From: a virus
Lineage: Duplodnaviria; Heunggongvirae; Uroviricota; Caudoviricetes
Reading direction: 5' to 3' (one strand)
IMG/VR virus record: IMGVR_UViG_2548876865_000003
Location: 1 to 6,183 of that record
DNA: 6,183 bases
Positions 2,596-6,183 of the stretch are shown here, one piece after another (the stretch's first letter is position 1; each line of letters begins with the position of its first letter). Both the position numbers and the translations under genes were made by a program. The notes beneath the pieces were generated by a model. The model saw only the letters and a list, made by a program, of their open reading frames with translations, was not told the DNA's origin and searched no databases.

Positions 2596-2921
2596 AAACA
2601 TTTCGCTGGAAAGTGAAGCCGGATATGGAGGTGAACTCGCAGCCGTCGGTGCGTGAAGTGCGCTTTGGTGACGGGTATTTGCAGCGGACGGCGGCGGGGC
2701 TGAATGCAGACCTGAAAACCTACAGGGTGACGCTTTCCGTGACCCGGGAGGAGGCCCGGCATCTGGAGGCGTTCCTGGCAGAGCACGGGGGCTGGAAGGC
2801 ATTTCTGTGGACACCGCCTTATGCATACCGGCAGATAAAGGTGACCTGTGCCGGATGGTCCGCGCGGGTCGGGATGTTGCGCGTTGAGTTCAGCGCGGAG
2901 TTTAAGCAGGTGGTGAACTGA
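2592..2921 (+). CDS. M: Minor tail protein M (lambda gpM-like), 109 aa
   Basis: Supplied ORF 2592..2921. ATG overlaps the H stop in an ATGA arrangement (2592-2595), indicating translational coupling. GGAGG lies about 8 nt upstream. Length of 109 aa equals lambda gpM, and the gene sits between H and L. Confidence 0.9.
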   Translation: MKTFRWKVKPDMEVNSQPSVREVRFGDGYLQRTAAGLNADLKTYRVTLSVTREEARHLEAFLAEHGGWKAFLWTPPYAYRQIKVTCAGWSARVGMLRVEFSAEFKQVVN

Positions 2922-3619
2922 TGCAGGATATTCACGAAGAAAGCCTGAAGGAGTCGGTGAAATCAGAGCAGTCACCGCGGGTGGTGCTCTGGGAAATCGA
3001 CCTGACGGTGCAGGGCGGTGAGCGGTATTTTTTCTGTAATGAGCTCAATGAAAAAGGGGAGCCGGTGACCTGGCAGGGGCGGAAGTATGAGGCGTACCCG
3101 ATTGAGGGCAGCGGCTTTGAGATGAACGGGAAGGGCAGCAGTGCCCGCCCGTCGCTGACGGTGTCGAATCTGTTCGGCCTGGTCACCGGGATGGCGGAGG
3201 ATTTGCAGAGCCTGGTGGGTGCCACGGTGGTCCGCCGCCGGGTGTATGCCCGTTTTCTGGATGCGGTGAATTTTGTGGCAGGCAATCCGGAGGCGGACCC
3301 GGAGCAGGAGCTGACGGACCGCTGGGTGGTGGAGCAGATGTCAGCGCTCACAGCCATGACGGCTTCGTTTGTGCTGGCGACACCGACGGAGACGGACGGG
3401 GCGCTGTTTCCCGGTCGCATCATGCTGGCGAACACCTGTATGTGGGATTACCGGGGAGAGGAGTGCGGTTTCACCGGCGGGGCAGTGGCGGATGAGTTCG
3501 ACAACCCCACCACGGATATCCGGAAGGACAGATGCAGTAAATGCATGCGCGGGTGTGAGCTGCGCGGCATGGTGGCTAATTTCGGCGGTTTCCTTTCCAT
3601 CAGTAAACTTTCGCAGTAA
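2921..3619 (+). CDS. L: Tail tip protein L (lambda gpL-like), 232 aa, with a Cys-rich C-terminal region
   Basis: Supplied ORF 2921..3619. Start overlaps the M stop as TGATG. AGGTGG at 2908-2913 lies 7 nt upstream. Length of 232 aa equals lambda gpL. The C-terminal part contains a cysteine cluster (TCMWDYRGEECGF ... DRCSKCMRGC) consistent with the reported Fe-S-binding gpL family. Confidence 0.93.
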   Translation: MQDIHEESLKESVKSEQSPRVVLWEIDLTVQGGERYFFCNELNEKGEPVTWQGRKYEAYPIEGSGFEMNGKGSSARPSLTVSNLFGLVTGMAEDLQSLVGATVVRRRVYARFLDAVNFVAGNPEADPEQELTDRWVVEQMSALTAMTASFVLATPTETDGALFPGRIMLANTCMWDYRGEECGFTGGAVADEFDNPTTDIRKDRCSKCMRGCELRGMVANFGGFLSISKLSQ

Positions 3620-4373: not shown

Positions 4374-4951
4374 ACACGGCGGCGGAAGCCATCCGCGCCC
4401 TGTCACTGCAGGTGCCTGGGTTTCGCCGTCAGATGAACGAAGGCTGGTACCAGATACGTATTGCCGGTGAGGATACCGCGCCGGAGGCGGTGTATGCCCG
4501 TCTTCACGAATCGCTGCATGAGGGCGCGGTTATCCACATTGTGCCGCGACTGGCCGGTGCCGGAAAGGGCGGACTGCAGATTGTGCTGGGGGCAGCAGCC
4601 ATTGTGGGCTCTTTCTTCACTGCCGGGGCATCGATGGCGTTATGGGGTTCAGCCCTGGCTGCCGGTGGTTTTTCTGCCACCACGATGCTGTTCTCGCTGG
4701 GTGCCAGCATGATACTGGGTGGCGTGGCCCAGATGCTGGCCCCGAAGGCAAAGACGCCGGAGTACAAAAGCACGGATAACGGCAGACAGAACACGTATTT
4801 TTCCTCACTGGACAACATGATTGCCCAGGGCAACCCGATGCCGGTGCCTTACGGTGAAATGCTGGTTGGTTCACGACGGATATCCCAGGACATCAGCACC
4901 CGTGATGAAGGCGGAGACGGGAAGGTGGTGGTTATCGGGCGGCAGGGGTAA
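4271..4951 (+). CDS. I: Tail tip assembly protein I (lambda gpI-like), 226 aa, with an N-terminal ubiquitin-like (beta-grasp) region and a hydrophobic Gly/Ala-rich C-terminal half
   Basis: Supplied ORF 4271..4951. ATG lies inside the 3' end of K in a different frame, giving a 103-nt overlap, the same size I recall for lambda K/I. The I frame is closed by TGA at 4265-4267 immediately upstream. GGGAGAGG at 4251-4258 is a possible SD at long spacing. Product contains RLAGAGKGG followed by predicted hydrophobic helices. Confidence 0.85.
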   Translation: MATTNAFCLASPPLVRICLHGDLQRFGRRLSLYVNTAAEAIRALSLQVPGFRRQMNEGWYQIRIAGEDTAPEAVYARLHESLHEGAVIHIVPRLAGAGKGGLQIVLGAAAIVGSFFTAGASMALWGSALAAGGFSATTMLFSLGASMILGGVAQMLAPKAKTPEYKSTDNGRQNTYFSSLDNMIAQGNPMPVPYGEMLVGSRRISQDISTRDEGGDGKVVVIGRQG

Positions 4952-4956
4952 AGCAT

Positions 4957-4989
4957 AAAAAAATCCCGCAGAGTTGCGGAGCTGCGGGA
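4957..4989 (-). terminator. Intrinsic-terminator-like hairpin oriented for the minus strand
   Basis: Perfect 8-bp GC-rich inverted repeat TCCCGCAG (4964-4971) / CTGCGGGA (4982-4989) with a 10-nt loop. On the minus strand the stem is followed by seven U (complement of A7 at 4957-4963). On the + strand no U-tract follows (AATAAACG), so it is oriented to stop leftward transcription. Confidence 0.5.
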
Positions 4990-4997
4990 AATAAACG

Positions 4998-5117
4998 ATG
5001 AAGATTAACGTTATGGAGTTATTTTTCAGGCATCAAGAAAGTAACGCTGCGCAATTATCAGCGCCACAGGTAATTTGTGAAAATGTGAGGAAATTCAGAA
5101 ATTTTATTCCGTCATGA
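4998..5117 (+). CDS. Hypothetical small ORF (39 aa) within the I-J insertion; coding status uncertain
   Basis: ATG 4998 to TGA 5115-5117, translating to MKINVMELFFRHQESNAAQLSAPQVICENVRKFRNFIPS. Weak SD-like GGGAA at 4986-4990, which is partly buried in the upstream hairpin stem. The stop lies 2 nt before the + strand terminator hairpin. Below the length cutoff of the supplied ORF track. No recognisable family. Confidence 0.2.
   Translation: MKINVMELFFRHQESNAAQLSAPQVICENVRKFRNFIPS
5054..5081 (-). promoter_or_regulatory. Candidate sigma70-type promoter on the minus strand (TTCACA, 16-nt spacer, GATAAT)
   Basis: Minus-strand reading: -35 TTCACA (complement of 5076-5081), 16-nt spacer, -10 GATAAT (complement of 5054-5059). 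It would start leftward transcription near 5047, running into the minus-oriented terminator at 4989-4957. Found by eye only. Confidence 0.25.
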
Positions 5118-5118
5118 C

Positions 5119-5150
5119 ACAGGCACCTCCGGGGTGCCTGTTGTTTTTGT
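5119..5150 (+). terminator. Rho-independent terminator-like hairpin on the + strand, about 40 nt upstream of the J start
   Basis: 9-bp stem ACAGGCACC (5119-5127) / GGTGCCTGT (5133-5141) with a 5-nt loop TCCGG, followed directly by the T-rich tract TGTTTTTGT (5142-5150). On the minus strand no U-tract follows, so it is + oriented. Confidence 0.6.
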
Positions 5151-5191
5151 GCATAACCAGATTCAGACATCAGGCAGGACAGGGGGACAGA

Positions 5192-6183
5192 GTGGGTAAA
5201 GGCGGCGGCAAGGCGCACACGCCGGTTGAGGCGAGAGATAACCTGAAATCCACGCAGATGATGAGCGTGATTGATGCGATCGGCGAAGGACCCATTGAAG
5301 GTCCGGTTAACGGCCTGCAGAGTATTCTGGTGAACAAAACCCCGCTGACGGACACGGACGGTAACCCCGTGATACACGGTGTGACCGCCGTCTGGCGTGC
5401 CGGGGAGCAGGAGCAGACGCCACCGGAAGGCTTTGAGTCGTCCGGGGCGGAAACTGCGCTGGGCGTGGAGGTGACGAAGGCAAAGCCGGTGACGCGCACC
5501 ATCACGTCAGCGAACATTGACCGTCTGCGGGTGACCTTCGGGGTACAGTCACTGGTGGAGACCACCTCACAGGGTGACCGTAATCCGGCTTCTGTCCGCC
5601 TGCTGATTCAGCTTGAGCGTAACGGACACTGGGTGACGGAGAAGGATATCACCATTAACGGCAAGACCACCTCGCAGTTTCTGGCGTCGGTGATTCTGGA
5701 TAATCTGCCTCCCCGCCCCTTTAACATCCGGATGGTCAGGGAGACGGCGGACAGCACCACGGACCAGCTGCAGAATAAGACGCTGTGGTCGTCATACACC
5801 GAAATCATCGATGTGAAACAGTGCTACCCGAACACGGCCATTGTGGGGCTGCAGGTGGATGCGGAGCAGTTCGGTGGTCAGCAGATGACGGTGAACTACC
5901 ATATCCGCGGTCGCATCATTCAGGTGCCGTCAAACTACGACCCGGAAAAACGCACGTACAGCGGTATCTGGGACGGGAGTCTGAAACCGGCATACAGCAA
6001 TAACCCGGCCTGGTGCCTGTGGGACATGCTGACGCACCCGCGCTACGGGATGGGAAAACGCCTGGGGGCAGCGGATGTGGACAAGTGGGCACTGTATGCC
6101 ATCGGGCAGTACTGCGACCAGAGTGTTCCGGATGGTTTCGGGGGAACAGAGCCGCGGATGACCTTTAATGCGTACCTGTCACA
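5192..6183 (+). CDS. J: Host specificity protein / central tail fibre J (lambda gpJ-like), N-terminal ~330 codons, truncated by the window end
   Basis: Open frame from GTG 5192 to the window end with no stop, which is why it is absent from the supplied track. Translation VGKGGGKAHTPVEARDNLKSTQMMSVIDAIGEGPIEGPV ... NKTLWSSYTEIIDVKQCYPNTA ... WCLWDMLTHPRYGMGKRLGAADVDKWALY ... DQSVPDGFGGTEPR matches the lambda gpJ N-terminal region as I recall it. Purine-rich AGGGGGA at 5181-5187 serves as SD. An in-frame ATG at 5114 is an alternative start. Confidence 0.9.
   Translation, partial: MGKGGGKAHTPVEARDNLKSTQMMSVIDAIGEGPIEGPVNGLQSILVNKTPLTDTDGNPVIHGVTAVWRAGEQEQTPPEGFESSGAETALGVEVTKAKPVTRTITSANIDRLRVTFGVQSLVETTSQGDRNPASVRLLIQLERNGHWVTEKDITINGKTTSQFLASVILDNLPPRPFNIRMVRETADSTTDQLQNKTLWSSYTEIIDVKQCYPNTAIVGLQVDAEQFGGQQMTVNYHIRGRIIQVPSNYDPEKRTYSGIWDGSLKPAYSNNPAWCLWDMLTHPRYGMGKRLGAADVDKWALYAIGQYCDQSVPDGFGGTEPRMTFNAYLS

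Follow-up and report, generated by a model that had tools for sequence, protein, structure and literature searches.

What kind of genetic element occupies the space between the tail genes I and J of a lambdoid prophage, in an orientation opposite to that of the surrounding late operon? The question is raised by a stretch of 6,183 nucleotides from the IMG/VR virus record IMGVR_UViG_2548876865_000003 (referred to here, at its full length, as the window), whose open reading frames (ORFs) lay out the distal portion of a lambdoid tail operon on the plus strand, in the gene order H, M, L, K, I and J. According to the ORF list, the tape measure protein H is encoded at positions 22-2595, M at 2592-2921 and L at 2921-3619; the stop codon of the ORF that contains I ends at position 4951, and J begins with a GTG codon at position 5193 and has the N-terminus MGKGGGK, as in lambda J. 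The 241-bp gap between I and J harbors, on the minus strand, a candidate gene for a small RNA (sRNA) that an earlier, sequence-only reading had described as a prophage-encoded, probably Hfq-dependent transcript of ~90 nt. That proposal is supported by published experiments on homologues at the same locus, EcOnc22 and PasB, and the window RNA is very probably a copy of the Hfq-dependent prophage sRNA that carries the name PasB in EPEC and the names EcOnc22-24 in EHEC. It is an already known sRNA from an already described family and not a new one.

The location between I and J is kept in every homologue examined. Based on BLAST searches, 723 of the 5426 complete E. coli genomes carry the gap sequence (median of 3 copies, maximum of 9), as do 147 phage records, mostly of Stx-converting phages, and it always lies between genes annotated as I and J. 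The tail region was matched in 4440 of the same 5426 genomes, and carriers of the module are a minority (723 vs 4440) of the E. coli genomes having this tail cluster. No complete E. coli genome or deposited phage exceeded ~93% identity over the 6.2-kb window (92.9% for the top complete E. coli genome), and the best match to the sRNA gap in these two collections was 91% identical, so that the window may come from a lineage missing from both.

In lambda, the I-J spacer measures 60 bp, lacks the sRNA module and contains a plus-strand hairpin with a T run of its own that is unrelated to the one in the window. The window's terminator-like plus-strand hairpin with T run, detected by scanning at positions 5119-5150 just upstream of J (10 pairs, 6 of them G-C), is conserved among the homologues, including one variant with a compensatory change from C-G to T-A. 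Because the lambda junction is only 60 bp long and because the window has this separate conserved hairpin, the sRNA unit is regarded as a reverse-oriented insertion of ~170 bp between the I stop codon and the plus-strand hairpin, the latter being the end of the inserted module and separate from the sRNA; it would halt non-antiterminated transcription ahead of J. The unit has its own predicted promoter and terminator and is missing from the lambda I-J junction, and it is a "moron" in the usual sense of this term, which Juhala et al. in 2000 reportedly applied to an autonomous unit inserted between conserved phage genes. Between the plus-strand hairpin and the J start (~5153-5177) we also observed copies of the heptamer TGTCTGA (in the minus-strand reading), a small variable repeat in the J leader whose copy number differs among homologues (2, 3 or 4; loci L074, L013 and L097).

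The sequence-only reading had delimited the sRNA gene by a sigma70-like promoter and by a stem with a U7 tail at 4989-4957, and both elements were recovered. A consensus scan returned the -35 hexamer TTCACA (5081-5076) and, after a 16-nt spacer, the -10 hexamer GATAAT (5059-5054), a combination that scores 10 of 12 and is the top promoter match in the window. RNAfold predicted an 8-bp terminator stem in which 4989-4982 are paired with 4971-4964, followed by the seven U residues at 4963-4957, and on the minus strand a motif scan detected a hairpin resembling a terminator at 4980-4965, with ATTTTTTTAT after it. The stem has the form CCCGCAG...CUGCGGG, with ~7 U residues after it and a U-rich stretch before it. 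When counted over the whole window, neither promoter-like sites (3 observed vs 2.1 expected) nor terminator-like sites (10 observed vs 5.2 expected) are significant by themselves, and since these counts are near chance, the case rests on comparison with other sequences.

Such comparison yielded consistent results at several levels. A profile that was built from 19 homologues, with the window left out, gave a single match in the window, at 5047-4958 on the minus strand (nhmmer, E=1.1e-21). The window RNA is identical to EcOnc22 of strain Sakai at 86 of 92 positions (93.5%), to PasB of EPEC at 72 of 99 (72.7%) and to a variant from IMG/VR at 90 of 92. Its placement in the I-J gap, on the strand opposite the tail genes, is that of the EPEC locus and of the Sakai prophages Sp15, Sp14 and Sp11, and its -10 hexamer occupies the conserved site, with GCGUUA, likewise conserved, following after 6-7 nt. 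Apart from a generic, terminator-like match to anti-hemB (E=2.7, positions 4955-5001), Rfam 15 had nothing relevant at E values up to 10; because Rfam 15 lacks a matching family, membership rests on the pairwise and profile similarities together with the literature.

The EHEC members of the family were detected as orphan Hfq-CRAC peaks in E. coli O157:H7 Sakai (Table S2 of Tree et al. 2014, Mol Cell, PMC4104026). The EcOnc22 peak was assigned to prophage Sp15 at 2902714-2902774 on the plus strand, a Northern band of ~85 nt that was destabilized in a delta-hfq mutant was seen for this RNA, and EcOnc23 (Sp14) and EcOnc24 (Sp11) were recognized as its homologues (PMC4104026). All three are listed with function unknown in a later review (PMC7873438). 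The 2014 coordinates refer to an older version of the Sakai sequence, and we calibrated the shift on the sRNA HnrS (= EcOnc10), whose 66-nt sequence was located through its published 15-nt complement to mazF, CTACCCAATCAGTAC, and its terminator. The shift relative to the current record NC_002695.2 amounts to +131 to +148 in the range of 2.17-2.90 Mb (calibrated at ~1871-1936 of locus L003, in Sp12), a correction that is needed for mapping the EcOnc RNAs of that table onto NC_002695.2. One shift was used for all three peaks because their distances from the respective J starts are the same (22-24 nt by the old numbering) and because they flank the calibration point. All three peaks fall into I-J gaps of the current Sakai record, where the tail genes are on the minus strand, and after correction that of EcOnc22 is located within the Sakai counterpart (1637-1727 of locus L004) of the window RNA.

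The EPEC member, PasB of strain E2348/69, was mapped as an 83-nt RNA on the minus strand of NC_011601.1 (1466343->1466261), in prophage PP6, between E2348C_1436 and E2348C_1437 (PMC8550237). We find that these two genes are the I and J homologues and that PasB lies on the strand opposite to them; in the alignment its 3' end corresponds to window position 4957 and its 5' end to position 5032. PasB was verified by Northern analysis and is Hfq-dependent in its stability (Pearl Mizrahi et al. 2021, Sci Adv, PMC8550237), with log2 changes of -6.8 and -2.4 in a delta-hfq mutant under the two conditions tested and with a higher level under the non-activating than the activating condition. In the RIL-seq data of the same study, PasB had 37 partners, 30 of them CDS or 5'UTR regions; it was the second RNA in 99-100% of its chimeric fragments, as is characteristic of sRNAs that act by base pairing, and partners from the accessory genome accounted for only 0.5-2% of these fragments.

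Judged from position, strand and alignment, PasB and EcOnc22-24 are one locus under two names. The link is absent from Table S6 of the 2021 study (PMC8550237), where EHEC homologues are given for PasA, PasD and another RNA and none is given for PasB, as well as from the 2026 preprint by Zhu, Shabalina and Storz (bioRxiv 10.64898/2026.05.13.724894), in which the EcOnc names never occur.

With these homologues at hand, one can weigh the possibility that the promoter and terminator motifs are incidental and that the gap is no more than a spacer whose terminators keep the tail genes insulated in the lysogen. The near-chance motif counts in the window would agree with such a view, as would the plus-strand terminator in the gap that has no connection with the sRNA; against it, in two pathotypes the homologues yield a discrete RNA that has the predicted size and depends on Hfq, and classes with just 62-75% identity in the RNA body retain both the -10 position and the 5' GCGUUA. 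We reject this chance model, whose probability we consider minimal. That the arrangement of promoter and terminator goes beyond chance is shown by its homology to experimentally detected sRNAs and by the conservation of the -10 position and the terminator across diverged variants. The -10 position, the 5' end, a block of the RNA body and the terminator are shared by the classes.

In the alignment column of the -10 hexamer, AATAAT occurs 39 times, TATAAT 37 times, TATCAT 36 times and GATAAT once (in the window); its A2 and T6 are always kept, and the hexamer occupies one and the same column in four sequence classes. The -35 column varies by class (TCCGGC 39, TTCTGT 36, TTCACA 30) and is poor in the Sakai type; the TTCACA of the window also occurs in the EPEC PasB type. 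By this comparison the -35 hexamer is not a conserved requirement, and promoter strength or the requirement for a sigma factor or activator may therefore differ between copies. Upstream of the promoter, an A/T-rich block, ATGACGGAATAAAATTTCTGAA...TCACA (5084-5118, minus strand), is invariant in five homologues derived from the BLAST searches. Within this block, the most conserved one of the gap, we observed the CRP-like sequence TCTGA-N6-TCACA (5099-5084). It is the only match with one mismatch in the window, yet 39 of 200 shuffled sequences also contain a match, and it is centered at about -44, not at -41.5; a CRP site upstream of the promoter was not retained as a significant feature.

The 5' end of the RNA is predicted from the same alignment. 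The sequence GCGTTA, 6-7 nt past the -10 hexamer, is nearly invariant at the start of an alignment of 22 variants (GCGUUAC at 5047-5041 of the window RNA), which places the predicted start of transcription at position 5047 or 5048 and predicts a primary transcript of 91 nt (5047->4957, minus strand). The coverage-based 5' end of PasB aligns to position 5032, i.e., 15 nt downstream of the start predicted from the promoter, and the mature RNA may therefore be shorter or processed.

RNAfold assigns to the predicted RNA a free energy of -20 kcal/mol (z = -2.99), a stability that was reached by 1 of 200 shuffled sequences. Its 3' part, at 4995-4957, comprises the U-rich sequence GUUUAUUU, the hairpin and the U7 tail, and is predicted to be a module for Hfq binding as well as termination. 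A U-rich stretch, a terminator hairpin and a U tail are said to make up the Hfq-binding module in work reported by Ishikawa in 2012 and Otaka in 2011. The terminator stem is identical in 20 of the 22 variants, with a variable loop, and in class D a different hairpin, followed by a U tract, is found at the same position. The published Northern probe for PasB, AATCCCGCAGTGATCGCGGAGCT, matches the window's terminator hairpin except in the loop. Further upstream, the A-rich stretch AAAAAUAA (5026-5019), which contains three A-R-N triplets if the next C is counted and recurs at this position in most variants, may possibly contact the distal face of Hfq; A-R-N motifs are described as Hfq sites by Tree et al. 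2014 (PMC4104026).

The candidate seed is the mostly single-stranded block AACUCCAUAACGUUAAUCUUCAU at 5020-4998. Outside the terminator, the best-conserved columns of the RNA body are found here, with C32, C33, T35, T44, T46 and T47 invariant and their neighbors conserved at >=90%. RNAalifold, applied to 22 sequences, detected no shared structure besides the terminator, in this block or elsewhere, and covariation says little because the terminator stem is identical in 20 of the sequences. The block is likely to be the seed; this assignment derives from conservation, since no common target motif has been reported for PasB (PMC8550237; 2026 preprint), and recent shared ancestry could account for part of the conservation. 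A seed just upstream of the terminator was also proposed for PasB, likewise from conservation, by Zhu et al. 2026 (bioRxiv 10.64898/2026.05.13.724894). Within the block, CUCC and UCUUC complement Shine-Dalgarno-like sequences and could pair with them. A validated target has not been reported in the literature for any member of the PasB/EcOnc22-24 family.

The sequence-only reading had also noted that the transcript would be antisense to a 39-codon ORF on the plus strand (4998-5117 in the ORF list) and had considered a sense/antisense pair conceivable. The overlap exists; the sRNA covers the start codon and is antisense to the first 17 codons. A type I toxin-antitoxin-like pair, in which the sRNA represses translation of the small protein, would make sense of this overlap, of the strong plus-strand terminator (5119-5150) directly 3' of the ORF and of the integrity of the ORF in the Sakai-type copies. 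Besides the Sakai-type variants, only the window and three variants of class B (the PasB type) keep the ORF intact; an open frame of just 18-25 codons exists in the reference EPEC PasB locus, where the RNA itself has been studied by experiment, as well as in classes C, D and E, and in the phage 1720a-02 type an ATG-to-ACG change has removed the start codon. Because the ORF is broken in most homologues, the idea of a conserved sense/antisense pair is unsupported. Furthermore, no codon position varies in the last seven codons and the middle of the ORF is free to change, which is a non-coding pattern; the peptide lacks the hydrophobic segment typical of type I toxins; the consensus scan returned no plus-strand promoter match in the I-J gap; and Table S2 of PMC4104026 contains no Hfq peak on the tail-gene strand at this gap. 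The 39-codon ORF is probably not a gene, and the toxin-antitoxin reading, largely refuted by the broken ORF, is rejected as exceedingly improbable.

The family proved to be more diverse than the variants with a few SNPs that have been reported for PasB. Anchoring on a 22-mer that is invariant and lies upstream of the promoter, we collected at least 120 IMG/VR contigs with 65 distinct gap sequences, and these represent at least five classes of the RNA: the Sakai type, the EPEC PasB type and the types of L011, phage 1720a-02 and L041. Identity to the window in the RNA body is 62-75% for the first four of these and only 37-44% for the L041 type. The classes have in common the -10 column, the GCGUUA 5' end, a U-rich and then an A-rich stretch, the sequence AACUCC...UUAAUCUUCAU and the terminator, which in the L041 type is replaced by another hairpin with a U tract after it. 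The L041 contig (IMG/VR UViG_2606217173_000002, reverse complement ~6330-6680) also carries two sRNA-like modules in tandem within one I-J gap, of which the first, a diverged one, has another terminator and a poor -10, and the second is canonical, with TTCACA-16-TATAAT; the upstream block AAAATTTCTGAAATTCTTCACATT is duplicated. In a separate exact-pattern scan of one genome per species, the conserved 22-mer had a single match, in a 460-bp contig (NZ_FWPT01000051.1, L006) that is labelled Parendozoicomonas haliclonae and is most likely E. coli prophage DNA contaminating the assembly. Since this single match is probably a contaminant, the scan gives no taxonomic range for the family.

Taken together, these observations are best accommodated by a trans-acting, base-pairing, Hfq-dependent sRNA, and as to the identity and kind of the RNA we hold this view with considerable confidence. 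The insertion would be a self-contained unit of ~170 bp, set in reverse between I and J, with its own sigma70-type promoter and its own intrinsic terminator. Homology, synteny and the conservation of the promoter position and the terminator are what the sequence comparison shows, and expression, size, Hfq dependence and many mRNA partners are documented in the literature for the homologues; for the window copy, expression, the exact 5' end, the seed and the effect on any target are inferred. An RNA of ~76-91 nt would most likely be made and then bound and stabilized by Hfq through the 3' U-rich stretch, the hairpin and the U7 tail, and perhaps through the A-rich stretch as well. The RNA would most likely act in trans, by pairing of the block at 5020-4998 with the coding regions or 5'UTRs of host and accessory mRNAs.

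The late genes of lambdoid phages are read as one antiterminated transcript, and the sRNA gene is embedded in the late operon in antisense orientation, with ~145 nt between it and the J start. The RNA has perfect complementarity to the I-J spacer in the late tail mRNA and might act in cis, by bringing about cleavage of this mRNA or altered expression of J; conversely, convergent late transcription might shut off the sRNA, which would then be a marker of lysogeny. The constant placement between I and J speaks for such a role. The PasB partners in the RIL-seq data argue otherwise, since the predominance of CDS and 5'UTR regions and the small share of accessory-genome chimeras point to trans targets in the core genome; in addition, the complementary region is non-coding and distant from the ribosome-binding site of J, and lambda does without the module. 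Cis action and its converse are, even when considered jointly, distinctly unlikely as the primary role. A speculation that we rate slightly higher, and still as rather unlikely, is that the I-J module is a diversifying cassette with two roles. If this were true, the variable 5' third, the existence of at least five classes and the occasional tandem duplication would provide co-resident prophages with differing target ranges, and the antisense embedding in the late operon could link sRNA output to whether the phage is in its lysogenic or lytic state, or adjust J expression. For PasB and EcOnc22-24, the literature describes neither role.

The preferred interpretation, a trans-acting Hfq-dependent sRNA, implies that a reading of sequence by itself can recover a genuine prophage sRNA of this kind. 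The biological gain is small, as the family has already been described and is abundant in EHEC and EPEC. Of use to the field might be the recognition that PasB and EcOnc22-24 share a locus, that the family comprises at least five classes and that the overlapping small ORF is not conserved.

Several known prophage sRNAs can be compared with the window RNA. HnrS (EcOnc10-12) is similarly prophage-borne, Hfq-associated and multicopy in EHEC and EPEC, and is likewise a short RNA with an intrinsic terminator that is encoded among late genes. HnrS is 66 nt long and represses hha, its seed pairing to the ribosome-binding site of hha, and complements the end of mazF over 15 nt (Poudyal et al. 2026, PLoS Pathog, PMC13502914). 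It was considered as a candidate for the window RNA since it also occurs in up to nine copies per genome, and was ruled out by locus and sequence: its gene lies between the lysis genes and the terminase, and CTACCCAATCAGTAC is present in HnrS and not in the window RNA. AgvB and AsxR, two further Hfq-binding RNAs encoded by EHEC prophages, have a conserved 3' part and a 5' part that varies, but they measure 51-60 nt and are encoded at the PR' moron site downstream of Q. The window had no match to either (RF02702, RF02703) in Rfam at E values up to 10, and the window RNA is not one of these anti-sRNAs.

The closest relatives remain the two RNAs of the I-J gap. PasB has the same position and orientation, the same -35 hexamer and spacing, the upstream block, the terminator stem with U7 and the AACUCC...AUCUUCAU block; it differs by a 6-nt insertion, by another 5' third and terminator loop, with only 72.7% identity overall, and by an annotated 5' end that lies further downstream than the start predicted for the window. 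EcOnc22 shares with the window RNA the locus and strand, the terminator stem, the conserved block and the 5' GCGUUA/GCAUUA. The two RNAs differ at six positions, located in the 5' part, the spacer before the terminator and the loop, and the window has the better promoter (TTCACA-16-GATAAT, compared to a poor -35 with AATAAT in Sakai). The Northern band of ~85 nt for EcOnc22 stands beside the 91 nt predicted for the window RNA.
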